A DNA stretch of 64,000 bases from Candidatus Eiseniibacteriota bacterium (GCA_963792585.1 CAWBWI010000003.1:1088001-1152000), one strand, 5' to 3'; counted from the stretch's first letter, positions 12,667-35,623 are shown. The notes: a model not told the origin generated them from the letters alone. A program made the numbers and translations.

Positions 12667-15600
12667 ATGCGAATCGGATTCTTCATTGCGCTGCTAGGTT
12701 TGGGAATCGTGCTGGGCGGGGCGCAGGGTGCGCCGATCATGCGGAGCGCGAATGCGGTTGGTCCCGAGGATCTCCCCCAGATCCAACTCCTATCCTCGAG
12801 CGATCGAGGGGTGGACCTCGTGTTCGAACTCCCGGTTCTGGGTGTGGAAGACCTGACCGTGGGATCGCGGACATTCTCCTCGATCTCGATTCCCGGCGGC
12901 GGGATCACCGGCGAAGTCGGATCGCCGATGCTTCCGGTTTTCACCCGGCTCGTCGCGATCCCGAGCGACGCGGCGGTGACCGTCACGGCGGAGCGTGAAG
13001 ACGTGGAAGAGATCCAGGGGATCAATCTGATCCCGATGCAGGAAGATGAGGGGGCGGAGTTCGCATACGACGCAAGCGCCTACGGGCGCGATGCCCTCGA
13101 GGGCGGTGAAGCGGCGGGCGTCGGAGCCCCGTCCATCGCCCGTGATTTCCGGGTGGTGCCGTTGACCTTCCGGCCGGTCCGCTACAACCCCGCGCAGCAG
13201 TCCCTGCAGGTGGCGCAGCGGATTCGCGTCCACGTCGAGTTCTCCGGGCACGATGCGCGTAACGTCCGACTCGGATCCACGCACGCGACGATCGCGCCGA
13301 GCTTCGACCGTCTCTATCGGGAGCTGATCGTCAACTACACCGGTCCCCGGGATGGCGTCACCGTCGAACCCGGGACCTATGTGATCATCTGTCAGAACGA
13401 CAACAACGTCCTCACCCGGATCCAGCCCCTGATCGAGTGGCGCAAGAAGAAGGGATTCCCCGTCGTGCTCGCCACGACCTCCGAGACGGGCCAGACATCG
13501 ACCACGATCAAGGCATGGATTCAGAACGCCTACGACACGTGGACGAATCCTCCCGAGTACATCTGCTTCGTCGGAGATGCCCAGGCGCCGATCACGATCC
13601 CGACCTTTTACGAGAACCTCTCCGGCTACGATGGGGAAGGGGATCATCCGTACACCCAACTCGAGGGCAACGACGTGCTCGCCGACGCGCATGTCGGGCG
13701 GCTCTCGTTCGGCTCGACCACGGAACTCGATGTCGTCGTGAACAAGATCATTGGCTACGAATCGACGCCGTACACGGCAAACGATCCGGGCTGGTTCCGC
13801 CGGGCGTGCCTCGTCGGAGATCCCTACGACTCCGGTTACAGCACCGTTCAGCTCCAGCAGTGGATCAAGGCCCGCCTGCGTCAGATCGGCTACACGGAGA
13901 TCGACACGATCTACGACGACTCCGTTCACGAGCCGCATGGCGACCGCGCTCAACAAGGGCGACACGATCTTCAGTTACCGGGGCTATCCAGGGGATGAGC
14001 GGCTGGGGGAACAGCAATACCTACCAGCTCACGAACGGATGGAAGATGCCGTTCGCGGTGGTCATCACCTGCGCGACCGGTTCGTTCGCCGGTGGGACAT
14101 GCCGGAGCGAAGGGGTTCCTGCGCGCCAACTCCGGCGGCGCGCCGAGGGGCGCGATCGGCGCGATCGGCACGGCCACGACCGGCACGCACACGCGGTTCA
14201 ACAACTGCATCACCTACGGCATCTGGTACGGGCTGTTGTATGGAGAAGCGTACAATCTCGGCGCGGCTCTGACCCGCGGTAAGTACGAGATCTACCTCAA
14301 CTACCAGGAGAACGACCCGAACCGCGTCGACGATCTGGTCGTACTGGAACAACCTGATGGGCGATCCGGCCGTCGAGTGCTGGACGGGTTTCCCCGACCC
14401 GCTGGCGATCGACTATCCGGCGACGATCCCCGTGGGCGCCAACGCCGTCCCCGTGACGGTCACCGAGGGCGGGCAGCCCTCCGTGGGGGCGCAGGTCTGC
14501 CTCTGGAAGGGTTCCAAGAGGTGCAGGTGGTCGGCGTCACCGAATGCGCTGGGACAGGTCGAGCTCGACGTCTCGCCGGCGACCGCGGGCAACCTGATCC
14601 TCACGGTGACCAAGCACAATCGCTACCCGCAGCTCCTCACGGTGCCGGTAGCGAACCAGACAGTACGTCGCCTACCAGGGGTCGACGATCGACGATGATT
14701 CCTCCGGGGAGAGCTCGGGCAACGCGACGGCGTCGCTGAACCCGGGCGAGACGATCGAGCTTGCGCGTCCAGCTCAAGAACTACGGCTCGCAGACCGCCA
14801 CCGGCGTCACCGCTTCGATCACTTCGGATGATCCGTACGTCACGATCACCGACGCGAACGAGACCTTCGGCGACGTCGCCGCCGGGGCGACGATCTGGTC
14901 CGGAGACGACTTCGGCGTCCAGGTTTCGATGGCTCCTGCCCCGACGGCCGCACGGTGCACCTCGGACTCGATGTCCAGTCCGGCGCAAACGAGTGGCACT
15001 CGGTGATCGACCTGACCGTAGTCGCCGCGGATCTGGCGAGCGAGACCTACCAGGGCTACAACGTCGGCGGGAACGGCCTGTTCGATCCGGGCGAGACGGG
15101 CCAGATCTCGATCGCTCTCAGGAACGTCGGCGCAGCGAACGCCGTGAGCCCCATCGCGACGCTCAGGAGTCTAAGCGAGTATGTCGACGTGCCGGACGGA
15201 CAGGCCGGGCTACGCGACGATCGGCGTCGGGGCTATGGGAGAGAACACGAGCGATCCGTTCACGATCCACATCGCTCCTACCTGCGTCCAGGGCTACGTG
15301 GCGACGCTTCAGCTCGCGCTCAGCTTCTCCGGAGGAGCGAAGGACACGACGATCGTCCTGGTCACGATCGGACAGCGCGCCGCGACCGATCCCATCGGGC
15401 CCGACGCCTACGGCTATTACGCATACGACAACACCGACACGGCATACCCACAGGCGCCGGTCTACAACTGGATCGAACTCGACCCGGCATACGGAGGCAG
15501 CGGCGGGACGGAGGTGGTGCTCGGCGACAACACCGAGTACGCGGACAAGTCACGGGTCGTCGACATGCCGTTCCCATTCGTCTACTACGGCAAGACCTAC

Positions 15601-17514
15601 ACCAAGGCGACGATCTGTTCCAACGGCTGGATTGCGATGGGATCTCAGTGGAACACCGAGTATCGGAACTGGACGATTCCCGGAGCCGGCGGGCCTCAGG
15701 CGATGATCGCTCCGTTCTGGGATGACCTGTACCAATCCGGCGGCGGGAAGGTCTACCAGCGATACGATTCCGCCACCCATGCGTGGATCATCGAGTGGAG
15801 TCACATGAAGAACGTCCCGCCGTATGGCGGCACGATCGAGACGTTCGAGGCGATTCTCTACGACCCCGCCTACGTCACGACGGAGACCGGGGACGGAGAG
15901 ATCGTCTTCCAGTACAGCCAGGTCCAGAACGTCGACAGCGTCGACGGTTACTCGACGGTCGGCATCGAGAACGAAGACCAGTCCGTCGGTCTCCTGTATA
16001 CCTGGTTCAACCGCTATCCGACGGGTGCGGCGAACCTCACGGCGGGTCGCGCGATCCGATTCATCCCGACGCGCGAGGTCCTGGCCGGCCTCATCCAGGG
16101 CACGATCACCAACCAGTCCGCCGGCGGGGCGCCGCTTCCCGGCGCCACGGTGACGGTTCTGCAGAATGGCCATGAGTACTCCAGCGGAATCGACGGCCAC
16201 TATCAGGGCAGCGAACCGGCGGGTGTCTATGACCTCAGGGCGAGCCGCAGCGGATTCGAACCGGATACCGCTTTGAGCGTCACGGTTCCGCTGGGCGGGA
16301 ACATTCAGATCGACTTCTCGCTCCGGGACAACACGCCCCCGACGATCCTCCACCTGGAGATCCCGAGCACGAGCGACACCGTGGGCCCGTACGTGGCCTC
16401 CGCCGGCATCACCGATCCATCCCCACTCACCCAGGTGACGCTCTACTGGCGGGCCAATGAGGGGAGCTTCGGCTCGCTTTCCATGGTCAACCAGGGAGCC
16501 GGAACGTACGCCGCGTCGATTCCAGGGCAGCATCTCTACACCAAGGTCGACTACTACATCCTGGCCCGGGACAGCGGGGGCAACACGGCGACCAGTCCCC
16601 TCAATGCCCCGACGAGTCTCCACACCTTCTTCGTCGGGCCGACGATCGCCCTGCTCCAGGACGACATGGAACTCGATCGCGGCTGGACGGTGGGTGGTCC
16701 CGGCGACAACGCGACGACCGGCATCTGGAGCCGGGTCGATCCGAATGGGACGTGGAGCGGCGACGAGCCGGTCCAGCCCGAGGACGACCACACGGTCGCG
16801 CCGGGCAGGCTCTGCTGGATCACGGGGAATGCGGCGCCCGGATCGGGTCAGGGAACGAACGACGTCGACGGCGGCAAGACAACGCTGACCTCCCCGCGGA
16901 TCAACCTGAATCTGGACGGTGTCGTCACCCTCCGTTACTACCGGTGGTTCACGAACAACACGGCGAACTACCCGAACGAGGATGCTTGGATCGTTCAGGC
17001 GTCCGACGATGACGGGGCGACGTGGGTCGATCTGGAGAACACCACCCAGAGCGATCGCACCTGGAAGAGGATGGAATTCGACCTGGGCGGGTTCATTCAG
17101 CTGACGGACCAGGTGCGGATTCGCTTCATCGCCCAGGACCTCGCGGGCGAGTCGATCGTCGAGGCCGGCGTCGACGACGTCGAGATCGACGCGGTCGGAC
17201 TGCTTGGAGCCGACGCGGAAGGCCCCTCGGCCCCGCTGCTGTTCGGTCTCGGGCAGAATCGTCCCAACCCGTTCCGGCTGCAGACCTCCATCGTCTACAC
17301 CCTTGACCGCGCCTCGCAGGCATCGCTCGCCGTCTACGACATTTCGGGCCGCGTGGTGCGCACCCTCGCCGACGGAATCGCACAGGCGGGCGTTCACACG
17401 GCCGTATGGGATGGGCGGGACGACGCCGGGCGTGGCGTGCCCTCCGGGATTTACCTGCTGCGGGTGCGTTCGGAAGCGGGCACGCAGACCAGGAAGATGA
17501 TCCTCGTGGAGTGA
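12667..17514 (+). CDS. Large secreted C25 (gingipain-like) peptidase-family protein with C-terminal FlgD-Ig domain (multiple frameshifts 13.9-15.2 kb)
   Basis: C25 propeptide (G.P.LP, P..YNP); PPEYICFVGD, DHPY, VGRLS, NKIIGYE, ITCATG, NLMGDP; NRPNPF...WDGRD...GIYLLR tail. Confidence 0.82.
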
Positions 17515-18696: not shown

Positions 18697-21342
18697 TCAG
18701 CGCAGCAGGGAGGCTCTGCGCACCAGCCGCATCTCGCCCGCGTCGATCCTCAGGAAATAGGCTCCTGCCGGCATGCGGCGGCCGTCATCGCCCCGGCCAT
18801 CCCAGACGACGGCCGTCCCGCGGATCGGTCCCTCGAGATCGTGGACAGCCGTGCGACGCCCCGACGCGTCGAAGACGGTCACGCGCGCCTGCGTCCCGCG
18901 CGGAAGATCGAGATCGAGGCGCACGGTCCCGCGCGCCGGATTCGGGACGACGCGGCCGATACGCAACACGCTCGGTTCGGTCTCCAGCGGATCGTCGATC
19001 CACGGCTCGTCGTCCAACTCGAGCGGGATGGGGTCATCGAGAATGGAAATGCAAGTGCCGTAACCGAACGTGACCTTCCCGGCGCCGTCGGAGGTCATGG
19101 ACGGATGCCAGGCGCCAATGTCCGTATAGAAGGCGGGATTGTCGACCACCACGCCATTGGCTCCGATCCTGCAGCCCTGAAGAGGACGCCACGCGCCGTC
19201 CCACACCCGCCACGTCACCAGGAAGTGATTCCCGTCCCACACGCCTTCCGGACCGTAATCGGTTCCCGGACCGGTCCAGATGGGGATCGGGGTCGGGTCG
19301 AGCGGCGTTCCGCCGGGACCCAATCGGATCGCGAAGAGATCATTGCCGTCTCCGGGCACCTCGAAGTCGTCCGATCCACCGACGAACAGACAGAGGTTCA
19401 CCTCCGGCCCCGCGATCAGACGGGTCGGTCGTCCGTACCAGCCGGGCGGGAGGATGGGTGTGCCGACGATTCCGTCTGCGTCGTCCAGAGGGGAGACGAT
19501 CGCCTTCTCGATCGCTGCGCGACCGTTCTGCTGCGACCAGAGCACGAGATATCCATCTGACGCGGCCACGACCGCGACATCGGCCGCGGTGCTGTCCGAG
19601 ACGACGGTCCAGCCCCGCATCCGGTTCCCCTGCGGATCGAAGAGCTCGGCCTTCACCCAGCTCGGCTGCCCGCCCTCGCCGTCGGATCCTCCGAAGACGA
19701 GCAGCGCATCTTCCGCGCGGGCGGCGAATCCATGGCTGGTGACGCTGTACCGGGTGTCGTAGCCGTGGCCGATGCCGATCGAGACGCGCCGGAGTGAATC
19801 GCCCTCTTGGGAGAGCATGTCCAGGACGATCGAGGAGCTGCTGTAGGAGTAGTACTCGTAGTAGTCGGAGTCGGAGTGAGAGTAGACGGAAGCGAATCCA
19901 TACCCCCATGGCCGGATGTCGGGTCGACTGATCGAGCACATGGAACAATCGTCCCAATAGCACGGCGGATTCCACACGGGGGATCGGAATCTCCGTGGGC
20001 ACTCGACCACCTGCCCCTCCGGGTCGACGAAGAGGGTATGGAAGTACCTCTCTCCGGCTTCGTCTGCCATGAGGACGAGGGTGCGCCCGCCCTGCGTGCA
20101 GACCTCGGAGGAGGACGGAATCGCCCCGCGGCTGACCTGGAGCGGCTCGGTACGAAGTAGCGCCCCGTCCTCTGCCTGCCAGGTGGCGAAGATCGGCCAG
20201 TTCTCGGGCCCTTCCCCGCCTCTGAGCGTGGTCGTGCTGTCGCGCTTCGCGGTCGGCGGGCCCCGGAAGCCGTACCACATCGTCACGAAAGCGGAGCCCG
20301 TCCAGGCGCACGCAACCTTGCGGAGATCGTCATTGGATTGCCAGAGGTCGGCAGGCAGGTCCCGATCCAGGAGGATCGGATCACCCATCAGGCTCGCGTC
20401 GGCCGCGACGCGGAAGGCCCGCACGTCGCCGTCGTTGAACACCACGAGGCCGGTGGAGTCGGAGCCGCACACGGAGAGGACGAGCGCATAGTCGTGGTCC
20501 AGGAGGTTGGAGTGAATCGGGACGCCGGAAGGATCGAGGATCAGCATCTGCTCGCGCCAGGTCGGCTTCAGAGCGACCAGCCAGTTGGAGCCCAGGCGCG
20601 CGACATCGATGCCCCAGGTTTCGTCGGTCCAGAGGATCCGGACGGGGACGCCGGAAGGCAATGCGTCGGCGCCCAGCGGTTGCGCCCATACGGCCGCCGA
20701 TCCATCGAACCAGACGAGCATCCCGGCCGAATTGGTCATCGCCATCGCGAAGAGCTTGGCGTGCGGCGAGATCGTGATGGGGGAGTCGTCGATCAGCTCC
20801 AACCCCGCATTGACGCGTACGAGTCGCAGGGAGTCCTGCTGAAGCCAGGCGACCGCGTGTCCGCCCGCGTACCGGGCGATCGTCGGATAGCGCAGATCGT
20901 CCCAATGCGGGCTCGTGGCGAGACTGAGTTCACCGGGAGTCACCTCGAGGGTCCGCCTATCGACGTTGCGCATGATGATGGCGTGAGGTCTGTCCACGCG
21001 GCCGATGCTTCCCTCAGAGACGAACTTCCACCCGAGGCTATCGAGATCCGAGACGTCGAAGGCCACCTCATGGATGCCGAGCCGGACCAGGTTGGTTCCG
21101 ATGCGCTCGCCACGCGGACCATGGAGCGCGGCGAGGATCCCATCGTCCATGTCCGAGTAGGCCAGGAGCACGAGCGAGTCCCCGAGAGCGATGGCCGTCC
21201 TCTCCGGCCAGGCCGGATCGAACGCGTAGCGGTACCCGTGATCGAGCAAGATCGGGTCGGAGATCGCCGGAGGATCGACGGCGCGGGCGTGCCCCGCGAA
21301 CGTTTCGAGAACGGCGACGAGGATGACGAAAGACGGCCTCAC
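18697..21342 (-). CDS. Secreted beta-rich protein with C-terminal FlgD-Ig/T9SS-like domain
   Basis: Signal peptide; WDG.FLV.W-type repeats; VPNP...WDGRGDDG...GAYFLR tail. Confidence 0.7.
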   Translation of the reverse strand: MRPSFVILVAVLETFAGHARAVDPPAISDPILLDHGYRYAFDPAWPERTAIALGDSLVLLAYSDMDDGILAALHGPRGERIGTNLVRLGIHEVAFDVSDLDSLGWKFVSEGSIGRVDRPHAIIMRNVDRRTLEVTPGELSLATSPHWDDLRYPTIARYAGGHAVAWLQQDSLRLVRVNAGLELIDDSPITISPHAKLFAMAMTNSAGMLVWFDGSAAVWAQPLGADALPSGVPVRILWTDETWGIDVARLGSNWLVALKPTWREQMLILDPSGVPIHSNLLDHDYALVLSVCGSDSTGLVVFNDGDVRAFRVAADASLMGDPILLDRDLPADLWQSNDDLRKVACAWTGSAFVTMWYGFRGPPTAKRDSTTTLRGGEGPENWPIFATWQAEDGALLRTEPLQVSRGAIPSSSEVCTQGGRTLVLMADEAGERYFHTLFVDPEGQVVECPRRFRSPVWNPPCYWDDCSMCSISRPDIRPWGYGFASVYSHSDSDYYEYYSYSSSSIVLDMLSQEGDSLRRVSIGIGHGYDTRYSVTSHGFAARAEDALLVFGGSDGEGGQPSWVKAELFDPQGNRMRGWTVVSDSTAADVAVVAASDGYLVLWSQQNGRAAIEKAIVSPLDDADGIVGTPILPPGWYGRPTRLIAGPEVNLCLFVGGSDDFEVPGDGNDLFAIRLGPGGTPLDPTPIPIWTGPGTDYGPEGVWDGNHFLVTWRVWDGAWRPLQGCRIGANGVVVDNPAFYTDIGAWHPSMTSDGAGKVTFGYGTCISILDDPIPLELDDEPWIDDPLETEPSVLRIGRVVPNPARGTVRLDLDLPRGTQARVTVFDASGRRTAVHDLEGPIRGTAVVWDGRGDDGRRMPAGAYFLRIDAGEMRLVRRASLLR

Positions 21343-24054: not shown

Positions 24055-24079
24055 GGCCCGGGGAATCGATCCCCGGGCC
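24055..24079 (-). terminator. Putative intrinsic terminator of gltA
   Basis: GGCCCGGGGA-atcga-TCCCCGGGCC, followed on the minus strand by TCTTTC. Confidence 0.55.
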
Positions 24080-24104: not shown

Positions 24105-25355
24105 CTACCGCTTGTCCATCGGCACGTACGGCATGCTGATCGGGCCGACGTAGATCGCGCGGGGCCGGAAGATGCGATTGTCCTGCAGATACTCGATCGC
24201 GCGGGCGGTCCATCCGGAGATCCGGCTCACCGCGAAGATCGGCGTGAACATCGCCGTCTCGATCGCCATGGCGCGGTAGATCAGACCCGAGTAGAAGTCG
24301 ACGTTCGGGAAGATCTTCTTCTCCCCGAGCTGGCTGCAGACGAGTCCGTCGAGCTTCAACGCGATGTCGTAGAGCCTCCGCACGGCCGGGTCGCGATCGA
24401 CGAGACCGTCCGCCATCGGCCCGAAGATCCGGGCGCGCGGGTCGTAGGCCTTGTAGACGCGATGCCCGAAGCCCATCACCTTGCGCTTGGTCTGCTGCGC
24501 CTTTGCGAACCACGCCTCGACGTTATCCACGCTGCCGATCTCCTCGAGATCGTACAAGACCCTCTCGTTCGCGCCGCCGTGGAGCGAACCCTTGAGGCTC
24601 GCGATGCCGGCAACGACGCTGCCGTACATGTCGGAGAGGGAGGAGTTGACGACCATCGTCGTGAAGGTCGACGCATTCATCCCGTGGTCGGCGTGGAGGA
24701 TGAGCGATATGTCCATCGATCGCTCGAGAACGGCGTCGGGTTTCTTGCCGGTCATCATGTAGAGCAGGTTTGCGGCGTGGCTGAGGGATGGGTCGGGATC
24801 GATCGGCTTCTCGCCTTTGCGGATCCGGGCGATCGCGCCCGTGAGGGTTGCCATTTGCGCGATCAGCTTGATCGCGATCTCGGTCTCGTTTTCGACGGAG
24901 GTGTCGTCGGCCCGGGGATCGATGTTTCCCTGAATCGAGGCGAGGGTCCGCAACGTCGACATAGGATGCGCCGTTCCCGCGGGCAAGTACTCCAGCGCCT
25001 TGCGCGACTCCTCCGAGAGCGGCGCATAGCGACGGACCTTGTCCTTGAACGCGTCGAGCTCGGCGTGCTTCGGCAGCTTTCCGAACAAGAGGAGGTAGGA
25101 CGTTTCCTCGAACGTCGAGTTCTCGGCGAGATCGAAGATGTTGATCCCCCGGTAGACGAGCCAACCCTTTGCTCCATTGACGTAGCCGACCATCGTGTCG
25201 GTCGCGGGCGCCCCCTCGAGGCCCTTGCCGATCGAGGCCTCGACGGGCCACGTATGGTCGCCCGTCATCTTCGGCTCCGGCTCGTCGTTCGTTTCGCGGA
25301 ACGCCTTCTCCCTGGCGACACGGATCAAGGCGGTGATATCGGCGGTCGTGGTCAT
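24105..25355 (-). CDS. gltA: Citrate synthase
   Basis: GLEG, LVYRG, HADHGMNAST, LHGGANE, GFGHRVYK.YDPR, PNVDF. Confidence 0.95.
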   Translation of the reverse strand: MTTTADITALIRVAREKAFRETNDEPEPKMTGDHTWPVEASIGKGLEGAPATDTMVGYVNGAKGWLVYRGINIFDLAENSTFEETSYLLLFGKLPKHAELDAFKDKVRRYAPLSEESRKALEYLPAGTAHPMSTLRTLASIQGNIDPRADDTSVENETEIAIKLIAQMATLTGAIARIRKGEKPIDPDPSLSHAANLLYMMTGKKPDAVLERSMDISLILHADHGMNASTFTTMVVNSSLSDMYGSVVAGIASLKGSLHGGANERVLYDLEEIGSVDNVEAWFAKAQQTKRKVMGFGHRVYKAYDPRARIFGPMADGLVDRDPAVRRLYDIALKLDGLVCSQLGEKKIFPNVDFYSGLIYRAMAIETAMFTPIFAVSRISGWTARAIEYLQDNRIFRPRAIYVGPISMPYVPMDKR

Positions 25356-25432: not shown

Positions 25433-25440
25433 AGTATAAT
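25433..25440. promoter_or_regulatory. Overlapping divergent -10 elements
   Basis: TATAAT on + (25435-25440) and TATACT on - (25433-25438), between gltA and the large fusion gene. Confidence 0.5.
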
Positions 25441-25516
25441 GCCCCAGGGACGCGACCGTCTCGGTGGGGACGGCACGTGCGAAGAGACGAGGCCGCCCGG
25501 GCGCGATGGAGGATCG

Positions 25517-28500
25517 ATGAACGCGCAAACCGGTCCCACTCCCGAGGGGATCTCCATCGAGACCCGCGAGCTCGCGGCGGCGCTGCGCGACGGGGACGCA
25601 TTGGCGCAGGCGGCCCTGGCTGCGATCGAGCCGGATCGCGTGATCCGGGCGCTCGAGGATGGAATCGAGTTCTTTCGCGCCGCCCCTGCGGGAGAGGTGG
25701 CCGACGCGGCCCGTGCCCTGATCATGCGGGTCCTCGAGGCGGGCCGGTGGCCGGTCTTCCTGCGGCGGGTAAGCGGCACGCCCCTTGCCGAGCGCTGGCT
25801 CCAGGCCGTTCTGACGGCCATCAACGAGGCGGACCTGAACACCGGGGATCTCCTGCGGATGCGTACGGCGCAACGGGCCGAACGACCGTTCGTGCAGATT
25901 CCCGTCGGGCGGGAGCTGCGGGATGTCTCACGCGGAGAGATCGGCGATCGAGTCGCCGCGCTCGGCTCGGCGATCGTCCGGAGAACGAAGACGTCTCACT
26001 CGCGCGTGCCCGTCGCGATCTTCTCCCCGAACCGGCTCGAGACGATGCTCGTGGACCTCGCTTGCCTCTGTCACGGAATCGCGAATGTGCCGATCGCATC
26101 GGACGCGACGCCGGACCAGATTCGCTTCATCCTCGAGCAGACGGGCTCGGAAACTCTCTTCGTGTCGGATTCGCGCCGGCTCGAAGGGGCGCAAACGGGC
26201 GGCGCGCTCGGCGGGGTCGGGACCATCGTCCTCTTCGATCCTCCTGAGGGGACCAAGACAGACCGACGACTGATCCAGCTCTCGGAGATCGAGGCGGAAG
26301 GGCGCATGCTCGGCCCGATTCTGCCCCGCCGCCCGCGCGCGGACGATCTCGCGACCGTGATGTTCACTTCCGGCACGACCGGCCGTCCGAAGGGGATCCG
26401 ATTCAGCCAGCGCAACATCCTCTACAAGCGGTTCTGCCGCGCCGTTGCCCTGCCCGAGATCGGCGAAGATGACGTCTTCCTCTGCTACCTCCCCCTCTTT
26501 CACACGTTCGGGCGATGGCTCGAAATGACCGGCTGCCTCTTCTGGGGCTCGACCTACGTGGCGATGGAGAACCCGTCCGTCGAAGCGATGCTCGCCAACA
26601 TGCGCCGGTTCCAACCAAGCGTCTTCATCTCGATTCCGAAACGATGGACCCAGCTCCACGAGAAGATCGTCCAGATCGCGGGGACCGATCCGGACGATCC
26701 GGGCGAGCCCGATCCGGCGCAGCTCCCTAACGCCGTCGCCGACGTGACCGGGGGGCGTCTGCGTTGGGGGCTCTCGGCGGCGGGATACCTCGATGCCGAC
26801 GTCTTCCTCTTCTTCCAGCGCAATGGTGTCGAACTGCTGAGCGGTTTCGGCATGACCGAGGCGACGGGTGGGATCACGATGACCCCGCCGGGGCGCTACC
26901 GTCGCGGGACCGTCGGCGTCGCCCTGCCGGGCATCGAGGTCCGCCGCGGCGAGGACGGGGAGCTGCTCTGCCGCGGGCCCTACATGATGATCGGTTACGA
27001 CGACCCCGACGAGCCGGAGCGGGACTACCGGACGGAGTGGTTCGGCACGGGGGATCTGGTCACCCAGGATGACGACGGCTATTACACGATCGTCGACCGG
27101 AAGAAGGACATCTACAAGAACGTCAAGGGCCAGACGGTCGCCCCGCAACGGATCGAGAACATGTTCACGGAGTTCGACGAGATCAAGCGGGTGTTCCTCG
27201 TCGGGGACGGGCGCGAGTACAACACCCTCCTCATCTATCCCGATTACGACGTGGCCGGCGGCAAACTGGCCCGGATGTCGCCCGACGAGCTGCGGGAGTA
27301 TCTCTCGAGCTTCGTCGTCTCGGTCAACGGGTTCCTCGCGCCCTACGAGCGCGTCGTCGATTTCGATCTCCTGCCGCGCTACTTCCGCGAGGACAGGGGA
27401 GAGATGACGCCCAAGGGAACCTTCGTGCGGAAGGTCGTCGAGCGCAATTTCAGCGACCTGATCGACGCCCTCTATGCGCGGGCCTATGTCACGCTGCGGG
27501 TGGAGAGCATCGATGTGCGCTTCCCGACCTGGCTCTTGCGCGAGAAGGGCATCACGGCCGATGCGCTGGTGACGGAGCCGGGCGGGATCCGGCTGCGAGG
27601 TTCGGGGGACCGGCTCGCGATCGGGCGGGCCGGCGGCGCCTCGGGCCATCTCCGGGTCGGAAGCTTCATCTATGCGATCGGCGCGTCGGCGCGGGAAGGA
27701 CCCGCGACCGTCGATCTCGATCCGCTGCTCCGCGTGCCACGCTACTGGGTCGGCAACGCGGAGCTGGCCCACTTCGCGGGCGAAGGCCTGATCCGGCGTC
27801 AGCGACGGGGCACGGAGCCGTTCGCGCGCATCACGGTCGAAGGCTGGCAACGCCCCGTCCTGATGCTCGACGATGCGCGCGCGCGCTTCGGGGTGGCCGT
27901 CCAGAAACAGGAGCGCGGCGCGTCGGGAGTCCACGCGGCGGCCGCACTCCTGCTCTCAGCACACGGTGAGGATGCGGAGCGGGCTCTTGCCGTGCTGGAA
28001 AGCTTCCTTGGAGACCCAACCACCGAGGAAGCCGCCCACGTGCGCGCGGTCTTGCCCCTGCTGCGCTCCCACGGGGATGGTGAGATTCGCAGGCGCGCCC
28101 TGACCCTCCTGCTTCCCCGCGAGGTGGACGAAGGAGCGGGCGAGACCCTCCGTCGGTTCCTTTCCTTCGATCCGGACGTGCTCGCGCCCGATGTGGCGTC
28201 GAGCGTGCTCGACGTCGACATGCCCGCCGCGGCGCTCCGCTCCTTGCTCGACATCGCGCGCGACCTCGACATCGGCAGCGATCCCTGGAAACTCGCTGCC
28301 GGCCGAAGACGGGTCATCTCGGTGCTTCGGCTCGCGGCCGATATCGGGTCCCGGCAGCCGCGATGGTATGCCGCGGCGCGGCAAACTCTGGTCCGCCGCG
28401 CTCTGACGGACCGTGACGGGGAAGTCATCGAGGCCGCGCGCACGGAGCGCGTGCGACTCGATGCGCGCTTCCGTTCCTGGATCGCCTCGGGGCGCGCGGC

Positions 28501-30298
28501 GCCCCCCGATCCGATCGACGAGCAGCCGATGGGATGGGAGAAGCTCATCCTGTTCGACGAGCGCTGCGACGCGCGCGTGCGTGCGCGCCTGCTCGATGCC
28601 TTCCGTGACTCGACCCTCTTGCGGGAAACGATCTTCCTGCTCGGGGAAGGGATGCTCCTCTCGGGCGCCGACCTGCCCCCTGGCGGAATCCTTGTCACCG
28701 ATCTGGGCTCTTCCGACGGCCATGCATCCGTGCGCGTCACGGTCCGCACGCGCGGGAACCGGTCGTACGAGTTCGTCGCGCGGGTCATGCGCGGCGCCCC
28801 CAACGAGGCGGCCGCCGAAGAGATCGACGGCATGATCCGCCTCGGGGCGGGCGGGGATGGGCGCAAGCTCGTCGCCGAGTTCGGCGGCTTCTGGCCGGAA
28901 TACGGGACATGGACGGAGGAGCTTGTCGACGACGAACCGGTCGGCGCGCTCCTCAAGAGAATGCTCGCGTCCGGCGACGCGGAAGCGCCCGCGCGTGTCA
29001 CCGCGCTCTGGCCGCACCTCGTCTGGAGTTCGCTCTCGGCCTTCTTCGATTTCTGGAATCGAAGCGGCCGAAAGGCGTTGATCGGCGACACGGGCATCAC
29101 GAACATCGCGATCGCCGCCCACGACTACCAGGAGAGTTCGCGACTGATCTCCGTCTCGCGCCGCGAGCCGTTCGAGGGCCTCGCGGTGCTCGTGCGCCGC
29201 ATGTTCGAGCGGTTCGTCGAGGCGGCAGAGGCGGAGTTCCCGATCCTCCGCGGCGTGGCGCCGCGAGCGCTCGCTTTCGCAGGGGTGGTCGAGGCCGTGG
29301 GAGAAGCCGACGCAATTCCTCTTCTCTGGAGATCGCTGGTGGAAATGCGGGAACGCGCCCGCGATTCCGCTGACCCGAAATGGGCCGCATGGAGCATCGA
29401 TCTATCGACGTTCCTCGACGACGTCGAGCGGGACGGTTTCGCGCCGCGGCGGCTGGTCATGGCGGTGCGACGCTACCACAACTGGTCGGGATTGAACCCC
29501 GGCGCCTCGTTGCAGGCGCGGGCCGTGATGCTGCAGGAGCTCTACGAAACGTACAGCCTCGCGGCGATGGAGCAGTCGCACCCCGAGATGCGCGTGCGCT
29601 TCTTCCGTCTCACGGTCTTTGCCGAGGCGCGCACACCGTTGGCCGTTGAACTCGACGCGTTGATTCGCGCGCACCGCGACACCCCGCTCGTCCTCGAAGG
29701 CCTCTTGCGACGGATGACGGTGCTTCACCGCACGCTCGGTCTCGACGAAGAAGAAACCTACTTCCTCGCCCGCATGACCTACGCGCACCTTCGGCCTGCG
29801 CAGCAGGTTCGGCTCGAGCTTCTCGAGGAGGGAGGGGAGACGAAGGCGGAGCTGGTGGAGGAAATTCGCGACGCCGACGGCGTTCCCCTCAAGATCCGCT
29901 CGGCGGCGAACCCGAAGGAGATCATGCGCCTCTACCGTCTCTTCGAGAACGCGGGGCTTTCGGTCGCCTTCCGCCCGGAGCATCGATTCCTGGTGATCCT
30001 GGACGAAGTGGACCACGTTCTCGGCGGGCTCTACTACCGGCCGACCGGTCGCGCGAGCGTGCACATGGAAAAGATCGTGGTCGGCCCGCGCCAGCGAGGA
30101 AAAGGGGTGGGCGAGAAGCTGATGGAAAGCTTCCTGCTGCGTGTCCGAGACGCGGGACAGAGCTCGGTGACCACCGGCTTCTTCCGACCTCACTACTTCT
30201 ATCGATTCGGCTTCCGACTCGAGAAGGGGTTCGCGGGCCTCGTCAAGGATCTCGATGAAGGAACTCCGGTCGAGGGGAAGGGTGACGGCGCATCGTGA
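25517..30298 (+). CDS. Multidomain fusion: long-chain acyl-CoA ligase-like AMP-binding domain + helical region + kinase-like fold + C-terminal GNAT acetyltransferase
   Basis: FTSGTTGRPKG, YLPLFH, GFGMTE, GTGD and DRKKD at the N-terminus; VGPRQRGKGVG and YFYRFGF at the C-terminus; one uninterrupted ORF; GGAGG RBS before ATG 25517. Confidence 0.85.
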   Translation: MNAQTGPTPEGISIETRELAAALRDGDALAQAALAAIEPDRVIRALEDGIEFFRAAPAGEVADAARALIMRVLEAGRWPVFLRRVSGTPLAERWLQAVLTAINEADLNTGDLLRMRTAQRAERPFVQIPVGRELRDVSRGEIGDRVAALGSAIVRRTKTSHSRVPVAIFSPNRLETMLVDLACLCHGIANVPIASDATPDQIRFILEQTGSETLFVSDSRRLEGAQTGGALGGVGTIVLFDPPEGTKTDRRLIQLSEIEAEGRMLGPILPRRPRADDLATVMFTSGTTGRPKGIRFSQRNILYKRFCRAVALPEIGEDDVFLCYLPLFHTFGRWLEMTGCLFWGSTYVAMENPSVEAMLANMRRFQPSVFISIPKRWTQLHEKIVQIAGTDPDDPGEPDPAQLPNAVADVTGGRLRWGLSAAGYLDADVFLFFQRNGVELLSGFGMTEATGGITMTPPGRYRRGTVGVALPGIEVRRGEDGELLCRGPYMMIGYDDPDEPERDYRTEWFGTGDLVTQDDDGYYTIVDRKKDIYKNVKGQTVAPQRIENMFTEFDEIKRVFLVGDGREYNTLLIYPDYDVAGGKLARMSPDELREYLSSFVVSVNGFLAPYERVVDFDLLPRYFREDRGEMTPKGTFVRKVVERNFSDLIDALYARAYVTLRVESIDVRFPTWLLREKGITADALVTEPGGIRLRGSGDRLAIGRAGGASGHLRVGSFIYAIGASAREGPATVDLDPLLRVPRYWVGNAELAHFAGEGLIRRQRRGTEPFARITVEGWQRPVLMLDDARARFGVAVQKQERGASGVHAAAALLLSAHGEDAERALAVLESFLGDPTTEEAAHVRAVLPLLRSHGDGEIRRRALTLLLPREVDEGAGETLRRFLSFDPDVLAPDVASSVLDVDMPAAALRSLLDIARDLDIGSDPWKLAAGRRRVISVLRLAADIGSRQPRWYAAARQTLVRRALTDRDGEVIEAARTERVRLDARFRSWIASGRAAPPDPIDEQPMGWEKLILFDERCDARVRARLLDAFRDSTLLRETIFLLGEGMLLSGADLPPGGILVTDLGSSDGHASVRVTVRTRGNRSYEFVARVMRGAPNEAAAEEIDGMIRLGAGGDGRKLVAEFGGFWPEYGTWTEELVDDEPVGALLKRMLASGDAEAPARVTALWPHLVWSSLSAFFDFWNRSGRKALIGDTGITNIAIAAHDYQESSRLISVSRREPFEGLAVLVRRMFERFVEAAEAEFPILRGVAPRALAFAGVVEAVGEADAIPLLWRSLVEMRERARDSADPKWAAWSIDLSTFLDDVERDGFAPRRLVMAVRRYHNWSGLNPGASLQARAVMLQELYETYSLAAMEQSHPEMRVRFFRLTVFAEARTPLAVELDALIRAHRDTPLVLEGLLRRMTVLHRTLGLDEEETYFLARMTYAHLRPAQQVRLELLEEGGETKAELVEEIRDADGVPLKIRSAANPKEIMRLYRLFENAGLSVAFRPEHRFLVILDEVDHVLGGLYYRPTGRASVHMEKIVVGPRQRGKGVGEKLMESFLLRVRDAGQSSVTTGFFRPHYFYRFGFRLEKGFAGLVKDLDEGTPVEGKGDGAS

Positions 30299-31254
30299 TC
30301 CTCACGCTGAGGCGAGCGCTCGGCGGCCTGCTTCTCGCGACGGCGATTCTCGGAGCCGGCGTCGCCCGAGCGGAGATCGCCCCCCACGAGGTCGTGATGT
30401 CGATCGCGTACGGATTCGGGACGGACCAGATCGACACCACGCTCTGCGAATACGGCGCCTACTGGAAGAGCTTGATCGCCAACTACCGGGTCGGCGATGA
30501 GGAAAGCTTGTGGCTCCTGACATCGGGGAGCCGTCCATCGGTGCGAAGGTTCGAATCGGTCGACGGCCGAGCGGTTCAGCGTGAACGGATCGATCTCCCC
30601 ATCGTGCCCGGGGGGTATGACGATTTTCTGATCGACGGCGGTGTCGTGATCCTCTCGCAAAGCCTCACGGATATGAAGGACCAGGCGACGTTCTACCGCG
30701 TCGCGGGCGATTCGATCGCCCAGAAGGTAACTCTCTCCCGAAAGGTCGGCTACAACCGCATTCGCGGTTGGGGGGTCGCAAACCTCGGCCGGCTGCGCGG
30801 GACCGGCGGCGATCTGTACAATTGCTTCGTCCGCATGTCGTCGTGCATCAGGATCGGCACGGCGACCCAACTCTTCCCCCGCCTCGAGACGGCCGACCTG
30901 GTGCCGGGCGTTCCGACCGCTACGGGGGACCTGGTCTGGGCCGATCGACTGATCGTCTCTCGCGGGATCGTTCCGGTGCTCGATCTGAGCGCGGGTTTGC
31001 CTGCAGAGCTCGAAGAGGTCTTCGACGACGGCGGTTTCGTGATCCGGCGGATCGTGGCCGATCGCAAGGTCCGGGCGGTTGAGGCGCGGTTCGAGATCTA
31101 CGATGCGGCCGGGGCGCTCCGTCGCGACATCATTGTTCGCGTTCCAGTCCATAAATTCTTCACAGTGGGTGAGGGGGAGATCGATTTCTTCACTCCCCGG
31201 TCGATCTACCAGCTGGAATTCGACCGCAAGGAGATCCGTCTCATTCGCTACTGA
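30295..31254 (+). CDS. Hypothetical exported protein
   Basis: GTGA overlap with the upstream fusion gene; signal peptide ending ARA. Confidence 0.65.
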   Translation: MILTLRRALGGLLLATAILGAGVARAEIAPHEVVMSIAYGFGTDQIDTTLCEYGAYWKSLIANYRVGDEESLWLLTSGSRPSVRRFESVDGRAVQRERIDLPIVPGGYDDFLIDGGVVILSQSLTDMKDQATFYRVAGDSIAQKVTLSRKVGYNRIRGWGVANLGRLRGTGGDLYNCFVRMSSCIRIGTATQLFPRLETADLVPGVPTATGDLVWADRLIVSRGIVPVLDLSAGLPAELEEVFDDGGFVIRRIVADRKVRAVEARFEIYDAAGALRRDIIVRVPVHKFFTVGEGEIDFFTPRSIYQLEFDRKEIRLIRY

Positions 31255-34370: not shown

Positions 34371-35504
<1,134 letters not shown>

Positions 35505-35623
35505 CAACTCCCATCCGGCCCTTGGGCCATGTCGTACTCCCGATTATCGGCTCATGACGGGCATCAGTTCAACCGGGCGAGCGGCCGCTGGCGTGAACTG
35601 GTGGATCGTGCGAGACTTGCGGC

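Follow-up and report, generated by a model that had tools for sequence, protein, structure and literature searches.

A single gene in the window, the 64,000-nucleotide stretch of Candidatus Eiseniibacteriota bacterium DNA analysed here (GCA_963792585.1, CAWBWI010000003.1:1088001-1152000), encodes a protein of 1593 amino acids in which an AMP-forming (ANL) ligase domain, a long arm, a probable pseudokinase and a GCN5-like GNAT domain are fused. The fusion is apparently uncharacterised, real and conserved. Its ligase has an invariantly basic pocket floor and its gene recurs beside that of citrate synthase; tentatively, the protein may be a polycarboxylate-gated protein acyltransferase that acts on enzymes of the citrate branch.

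The fusion gene and its surroundings

The features of the gene and of its divergent neighbour are as follows, with positions counted from the first base of the window.

24055..24079 (-): terminator-like hairpin with a 10 bp stem behind gltA, from the sequence
24105..25355 (-): citrate synthase (gltA; TIGR01800, type II), 416 aa, divergent and 161 bp from the fusion start, by family match
25508..25512 (+): ribosome-binding site GGAGG, four bases ahead of the ATG
25517..30298 (+): whole fusion ORF, 1593 aa, a single open frame from ATG 25517 to TGA 30298, with full-length homologs
25868..27481 (+): ANL (AMP-forming) ligase domain of the ACSL/FadD11/CAR subtype, residues 118–655, by Pfam, NCBIfam and motifs
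26426..26440 (+): invariant basic triad K304/R305/R308 in the helix carrying luciferase Arg218 (substrate-pocket lining), by sequence alignment
27401..27430 (+): A10 loop, E-x-T-x-K-G-T-x-x-R, with Thr at the canonical Lys position 635 and a nearly invariant Lys633, by alignment
27482..28513 (+): conserved arm, residues 656–999, no family assigned, probably a short beta-rich part followed by a helical-repeat (HEAT-like) part, by sequence pattern and weak matches
28514..29446 (+): protein-kinase-like fold, residues 1000–1310, probable pseudokinase with Ser1212 for the DFG Asp and no conserved beta3 Lys, by predicted structure, fold search and alignment
29447..29836 (+): conserved linker domain, residues 1311–1440 (W1323, Y1346, R1359, T1366), no family assigned, by alignment
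29837..30262 (+): GCN5-like GNAT domain with motif A, by Pfam and profile comparison

An open frame of 1593 codons is expected by chance with a probability of about 1e-17 at the base composition of the window. Pfam places AMP-binding at residues 118–494 (E 4e-56), AMP-binding_C_3 at 535–655 and GNAT at 1479–1566 (E 2e-6), with no Pfam family between the last two. The original prediction of one intact ORF of about 1590 aa, with an N-terminal AMP-binding domain and a C-terminal GNAT carrying RQRGKGVG and YFYRFGF, is borne out, both motifs being present. An exact TATAAT is located 5' of the ORF at 25435-25440; no full sigma-70 promoter was called upstream of it.

Several other features were seen in the window. 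An ORF of 319 aa with a signal-peptide-like start (30295-31254, +) overlaps the fusion stop by 4 bases; it belongs to no Pfam family, and nothing matching it was found in the rest of the genome or in those fetched loci that were searched. A membrane ORF of 571 aa likewise has no match in any fetched locus searched. One apparent gene at 34371-35514 (-) is spread over short ORFs in different frames (35218-35514, 35031-35507, 34808-35152, 34756-35112 and 34371-34811), which would mean several frameshifts, through sequencing error or decay. Large secreted-looking proteins with C-terminal tails, presumably FlgD-like, are encoded at 14761-17514 (+), where the gene is seemingly split by frameshifts near 15000-15200, and at 18697-21342 (-). 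The whole genome (G000) contains at least 24 Ser/Thr kinase domains, most of them in open frames of 700-1400 aa.

Conservation of the fusion

With residues 680–1593 as the query, 19 full-length proteins of 1543–1625 aa were found among 8000 scored candidates, those named being from Ca. Eisenbacteria, Acidobacteriota and Planctomycetes. There are 370 matches to the non-ligase part among 50%-identity representatives. Both ligase families and GNAT were hit (E <= 0.1) in all 26 of the full-length representatives scanned, which are part of the 86 full-length sequences from protein searches. The GTDB genomes contain at least 546 relatives of the fusion among the 598 pattern matches listed, and the 80 GTDB loci kept come from Ignavibacteria, Calditrichota, KSB1, Acidobacteriota, Bacteroidota, Planctomycetota and Eisenbacteria. 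The spread is patchy: in three samples 13 of 121, 7 of 71 and 3 of 61 genomes carry the fusion, each with a single match. Residue patterns were taken from an alignment of 153 sequences, 86 from protein searches and 67 from loci, partly overlapping, which includes 116 main-clade and 37 distant-clade sequences.

Shorter matches to the ligase do not alter this picture. The C-termini of 119 new shorter matches, drawn from the best 120 of 2859, are scattered over residues 565–1247 with no peak at the domain end, and these therefore look like truncations. No stand-alone ligase or split form was found among them, and a stand-alone form is rejected on this basis. Contigs from other runs, belonging to a related strain, connect gltA with the start of the ORF and join the kinase segment to the GNAT; within the ORF they list no indel. 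The fusion ORF is therefore real, rather than an assembly chimera of separate ligase and GNAT genes, the possibility raised with the original prediction, since full-length homologs are many, 370 clusters match the non-ligase part, the ligase is not found alone among the shorter matches examined and the related-strain contigs bridge the gene. Contigs from RNA runs also span the divergent gap between gltA and the fusion; because they cover the intergenic gap, DNA may be present in those runs and they were rejected as evidence of expression.

The ligase domain

The ligase is the best-conserved part of the fusion protein. Its closest NCBIfam families are FadD11 and long-chain ligases, all far below their cut-offs. 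It keeps the P-loop, GFGMTE, GD, DRKK and A8 Gly motifs; E448, D513, R528 and the A8 Gly538 of the CoA tunnel are found in 153 of 153 sequences and G487 in 152. The residues listed as invariant in ANL enzymes are Glu, Gly, Asp and Arg (328, 384, 418 and 433 in T. thermophilus) and Lys524 (PMC6122825); the first four are present in the fusion, with positions paired by motif.

The substrate side of the pocket is unusual. K304, R305, R308, H329 and E336 are present in all 153 aligned sequences, and the basic-triad motif is found in 79 of 80 distant-clade loci, the single miss being a split gene. In a sequence alignment K304/R305 fall at the position of luciferase Arg218, which lines the substrate site (PMC6122825), and a basic triad at this position is absent from the ordinary ligases compared. 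The uncharged acyl tunnel typical of long-chain ligases would thus be lacking here, given the invariant K304, R305 and R308. The presence of these three residues at a position aligned with the substrate site points to a small polyanionic acid as the ligand.

The A10 Lys belongs to a set of five residues that do not vary across 374 class I adenylate-forming enzymes (PMC6122825); adenylation depends on it more than thioester formation does (PMC11255334). When the fusion is aligned without gaps to four carboxylic acid reductase structures and 12 ordinary ligases, T635 falls at the canonical A10 Lys position. Of the 153 sequences, 115 have T here, 37 have S and 1 has D, so the invariant lysine (Lys524) is not found there, and Lys633, two residues before it, is present in 152. 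Among 27 control loci from related genomes, of which 22 gave a usable reading, the 12 readable ordinary ligases of the same subtype all read T-P-T/S-x-K, whereas 10 fusions read T-x-K-G/Q-T. Lys633 may replace the canonical lysine. Judged by its sequence, the domain is not an ordinary fatty-acid ligase, and the activation of a fatty acid, one of the roles originally proposed, is unlikely because of the invariantly basic pocket floor together with an A10 lysine displaced relative to 12 of 12 readable ordinary ligases.

The arm, the kinase-like segment and the GNAT domain

Homology is faint in the arm (residues 656–999): three of 26 homologs have sub-threshold HEAT/HEAT_2 matches, of which one falls outside the arm, and there is a weak match to designed helical repeats (E 0.0035). 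The start of the arm is probably a short beta-rich part. The kinase-like segment named in the original prediction has a protein-kinase-like fold by structure prediction and fold search. AlphaFold2 models residues 1000–1310 with a pLDDT of 93 and a pTM of 0.87. All 50 rows listed in the VIA fold search are kinase-like, topped by Bud32 4ww5 (Z 13.4, rmsd 4.3, 219 aligned) and including RIO1 (Z 12.6); Foldseek has RIO2 first (E 5e-6), again with all rows listed kinase-like. Language-model features of a homolog's kinase segment score 0.97 for DUF6206 and 0.92 for ABC1/RIO1, APH, Kdo, WaaY and YrbL. In sequence searches the segment has no Pfam match and its best PDB match has an E of 0.8; hhalign gives a probability of 1.6%, yet this is above 30 of 30 shuffles. 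The model predicts a two-lobed PKL fold, in which the hinge and catalytic loop were placed by profile alignment.

The residues of an active kinase are not retained in the family. The DFG Asp position is Ser in 138 of 153 sequences; main-clade sequences have the beta3 Lys in 16 of 116 cases and the catalytic Asp in 57 of 116, and in the distant clade neither Lys nor Asp is among the four commonest residues at its position. The catalytic-loop Asn is mostly kept. The segment is thus a likely pseudokinase, with a kinase fold that looks dead.

The terminal GNAT has motif A (R/Q-x-x-G-x-G/A) as RQRGKGVG at residues 1525-1532, with G1530 in 139 of 153 sequences; distant-clade members show a looser form of this motif. 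In profile comparison the domain comes nearest to Tetrahymena GCN5 (E 6e-9). Residue 1519 is Lys in 108 of 116 sequences of the main clade and Gly in 31 of 37 of the distant clade.

Association with citrate synthase in the main clade

Citrate synthase is encoded within 7 kb of the fusion in 37 of 80 loci. Where there is at least 2.5 kb on both sides it is near the fusion in 32 of 53 loci and absent in 21, against a chance roughly estimated at <1% per locus; these counts and the genome counts below overlap, and related genomes are not independent. Among neighbour families it alone reaches four lineage groups, which were set by hand from record titles and the tree; no other reaches more than two. 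Four arrangements of gltA (type II upstream-divergent, eukaryote-type upstream on the same strand, eukaryote-type downstream-convergent and type II downstream-convergent) fall in four separate clades of a quick FastTree tree in which two clade supports are low and loci under 1430 aa are left out. The two main-clade types of the enzyme are about 27% identical.

The citrate synthase of the window is the only match to this enzyme in the genome, which is 84% complete. Within the same phylum, citrate synthase adjoins the fusion in 8 of 13 fusion genomes and is the sole match in 7 of these 8; of the rest, two are cut by contig ends and three are distant-clade and unlinked. Genome G256, from the window's family, has a eukaryote-type enzyme at the divergent position that is occupied by type II in G000, G013, G091 and G257, which indicates that the gltA link survived a change of subfamily. 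In a second sample of 7 fusion genomes the citrate synthase is within ~2 kb in two, at 11 kb in one and unlinked in four. Of the two targets originally suggested, GltA is strongly backed as a candidate by this gene context (37 of 80 loci and the in-place subfamily swap), and Pfk is not supported as a partner, with pfk nearby in only 3 loci against 51 for citrate synthase.

The type II subgroup to which the window gltA belongs (with L081-L090, L022 and L033) has a conserved 40-residue N-terminal extension, which was rejected as a docking tag, being present also in three genomes in which no fusion was found. Fusion carriers in families f1 and f6 have type II or eukaryote-type citrate synthases, and the members of these families that lack it score as type I; this anti-correlation is suggestive in the two families and is not claimed, since there are counter-examples elsewhere in G125, which has both, and in G127, with a type-I-scoring enzyme. 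K346 of citrate synthase is conserved in both main types and matches human Lys-368, which is beside the active site and is methylated by METTL12 (PMC5518231). Nearby is human K393, where an acetyl mimic raises the Km for acetyl-CoA about 30-fold (PMC12616816). K346 is conserved also in genomes in which no fusion was found, and is therefore only a first place to look.

Other neighbours were observed in few loci. Acetate kinase is downstream of the fusion in two (L041, 11642-13024, and L075) and pyruvate/2-oxoacid:ferredoxin oxidoreductase genes are near two more (L101, 12207-15818; L107, 16278-17690); these are further acetyl-CoA-node genes, each in few loci. There is no conserved exporter, carrier protein or tailoring gene near the fusion, and no lipid-metabolism gene recurs as a neighbour across groups. 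In the part of the neighbouring ORFs that was scanned, no homocitrate-synthase-like gene and no ATP-citrate lyase turned up.

Neighbourhood in the distant clade

For the distant clade 80 metagenome loci were fetched. Aconitase is upstream-divergent of the fusion in 21 of these, and NADP-dependent isocitrate dehydrogenase is present in 19, in 18 of them directly downstream on the same strand with a gap of 0-181 bp; in this arrangement the fusion lies between acn and icd. Twelve loci have a further, third subfamily of citrate synthase (PRK14032) after aconitase; the three subfamilies near the fusion are about 26-38% identical. The 24 loci with this TCA context represent 23 clusters at 90% identity and 9 at 70%. 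In 12 other loci a GntR gene faces the fusion, followed in 10 by glutamate mutase or methylaspartate ammonia-lyase cluster genes. One locus has a DcuC carrier upstream, and another a DASS/citrate-transporter-like gene. Neither TCA nor GntR context is found in the remaining 44, and 56 of the 80 show no TCA gene, many being on short contigs. In loci L138, L142, L147, L149, L158, L160, L177 and L186 a conserved cluster divergent from the fusion was seen, made up of GntR with glutamate mutase, methylaspartate ammonia-lyase, AtuA-like and DUF4387 genes; PEPCK is directly downstream in two loci.

The common thread of the neighbours is the citrate-isocitrate-2-oxoglutarate-glutamate node rather than one protein. 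Since the neighbours differ (three citrate synthase subfamilies, aconitase, isocitrate dehydrogenase and glutamate mutase), a shared metabolite fits better than a single protein target.

Comparison with known systems

The type I GNAT lysine acetyltransferases, Salmonella Pat and E. coli PatZ/YfiQ, likewise have a large N-terminal acyl-CoA-synthetase-like module with an altered catalytic residue and a C-terminal GNAT, and their sensor-gated logic is here likened to that of the fusion (PMC8556138). An altered module of this kind ahead of a GNAT is the type I Pat design (PMC8556138). The type I/II Pat enzymes are defined by an NDP-forming acyl-CoA synthetase-like domain (PMC8556138), whereas Pfam and NCBIfam give only AMP-forming families for the fusion. 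The fusion differs further in its helical arm and pseudokinase between ligase and GNAT, in a pocket that points to a polycarboxylate and in a context that points to TCA-entry enzymes. The contrast with Pat that was originally drawn, of an AMP-forming rather than NDP-forming ligase plus a kinase fold, holds.

In the type III allosteric GNATs (MtPat Rv0998 cAMP-GNAT, ACT-GNAT and MxPat NADP-GNAT) an N-terminal ligand domain is also proposed to gate a C-terminal GNAT. Their regulatory parts are cAMP, ACT or Rossmann domains of about 300-400 aa (PMC8556138), whereas that of the fusion is about 1440 aa with ANL and kinase folds, and its gating is a proposal. No cAMP, ACT or NADP-binding domain was found by Pfam in the fusion protein or in 26 homologs. 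With no NDP-forming, cAMP, ACT or Rossmann module, the fusion is not a member of the Pat or type III groups.

The ACSL/FadD11 ligases and the A domains of carboxylic acid reductases are of the same subtype (PF23562), and the P-loop, A5, A7 and A8 are kept in the fusion. They differ from the fusion ligase in the A10 Lys, which is displaced by two residues in the fusion, and in its basic pocket floor; the fusion ligase was, in addition, never found alone among the 119 shorter matches examined. The kinase-like segment has the two-lobed fold of Bud32/RIO kinases, APH-clan small-molecule kinases and DUF6206, but identity is 6-14% and the DFG Asp and beta3 Lys are not kept.

AceK, the isocitrate dehydrogenase kinase/phosphatase, is a metabolite-sensing modifier of a TCA branch-point enzyme that is encoded near related genes, and the fusion is likened to it as a dedicated modifier. 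AceK phosphorylates, whereas the kinase fold of the fusion looks dead and its output domain is a GNAT. AceK is not among the 50 VIA rows or the Foldseek rows listed, and the kinase segment has no AceK Pfam match. In the original prediction the architecture was not recognised as characterised, and it is not described in the literature searched, in which coverage of subscription journals was limited; nor are citrylation or an AMP-forming citrate ligase. One preprint, as far as its accessible text goes, concerns another system (bioRxiv 10.1101/2025.10.31.685773).

Proposed function and alternatives

The idea of a sensor-gated GNAT fits these data, with the ligand, gating, target and acyl donor inferred. 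The ANL domain would bind ATP/AMP and, in its basic pocket, a small polycarboxylate of the citrate branch, citrate being the first candidate, with isocitrate, 2-oxoglutarate or a glutamate-type acid as further possibilities. Rotation of the ANL C-terminal subdomain, a movement that is established for ANL enzymes, would be driven by binding of the ligand or by formation of the adenylate. The helical arm and pseudokinase would relay this rotation and dock the target, and some 800 residues of scaffold and pseudokinase would suit protein docking and allostery. The GCN5-like GNAT would then acylate a lysine of citrate synthase, or possibly of isocitrate dehydrogenase or aconitase, most likely with acetyl-CoA as the donor. 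Against such a gated acyltransferase are the 21 of 53 well-flanked loci without citrate synthase, the looser GNAT motif A of the distant clade, the 56 of 80 distant-clade loci, many on short contigs, that show no TCA gene, and the conservation of K346 where no fusion was found.

With the remaining ANL catalytic positions retained and Lys633 almost invariant, the ligase may be catalytically active instead of acting as a sensor. A possible, if unlikely, alternative is a self-contained enzyme of polycarboxylate acyl transfer, in which an active ligase with Lys633 as its catalytic residue would make citryl-AMP and citryl-CoA, or a related acyl-CoA, and the GNAT would transfer the group to an amine; the acceptor would be a protein lysine, which would be a new modification, or a small molecule such as glutamate. 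In its favour are the retention of every ATP, Mg and CoA-tunnel position, a ligase core better conserved than the rest of the protein, the lack of a stand-alone or split form among the 119 shorter matches, a gene context that joins citrate-making and glutamate-mutase genes, and the presence of K1519 in most main-clade sequences. The A10 Lys is, however, off its canonical place, and its loss cuts adenylation strongly in other ANL enzymes (PMC11255334, PMC6122825); K1519 is mostly Gly in the distant clade, no exporter, carrier protein or tailoring gene is conserved nearby, and the word 'citrylation' is absent from the literature searched. Also unlikely is a 'citryl writer' in one chain, in which an AMP-forming citrate:CoA ligase would use a relocated catalytic lysine and pass citryl-CoA to its own GNAT. 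Its output would be citrylated citrate synthase or TCA-entry enzymes, as product feedback, or an N-citryl amide such as citryl-glutamate.

The basic pocket, the intact CoA-side motifs and the tight, repeated pairing with citrate synthase, the sole genome match in 7 of 8 linked genomes, would also suit an AMP-forming citrate:CoA ligase that is paired with citrate synthase as a citryl-CoA lyase, for ATP-driven citrate cleavage or salvage, with the GNAT and pseudokinase as regulators. This is improbable: citrate synthase hydrolyses citryl-CoA, which would expose the pair to futile cycling, the icd and glutamate-mutase contexts are unexplained, and no AMP-forming citrate ligase is apparent in the literature searched. 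The database label, of a long-chain fatty acyl-CoA ligase that would channel acyl-CoA to the GNAT, is very improbable. It agrees with the best family matches (FadD11 and long-chain ligases, far below cut-offs) and with the ACSL/CAR subtype of the C-terminal subdomain, but the acyl pocket has three invariant basic residues where ordinary ligases are uncharged, the A10 motif differs from that of 12 of 12 readable ordinary ligases and lipid-metabolism genes do not recur nearby. Hardly credible is an AceK-like regulator with an active kinase fold that phosphorylates isocitrate dehydrogenase or citrate synthase; the fold is truly that of a kinase, the gene is directly upstream of icd in 18 distant-clade loci and the catalytic-loop Asn is mostly kept, but the DFG Asp, beta3 Lys and catalytic Asp are not conserved, at the frequencies given above.

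The best reading is a variant of the ligand-sensing GNATs, the polycarboxylate-gated acyltransferase. The known bacterial acetyltransferases of types I-V have no AMP-forming ligase or kinase fold as a regulatory module. If the proposal is true, the fusion would also be a natural case of an ANL family in which the A10 lysine, invariant elsewhere, is displaced. Citryl transfer, if true, would be categorically new, as an undescribed lysine modification. A family that remains linked to gltA, acn and icd across many little-studied phyla would represent an unrecognised control point of TCA entry, and would do for citrate synthase what AceK does for isocitrate dehydrogenase.
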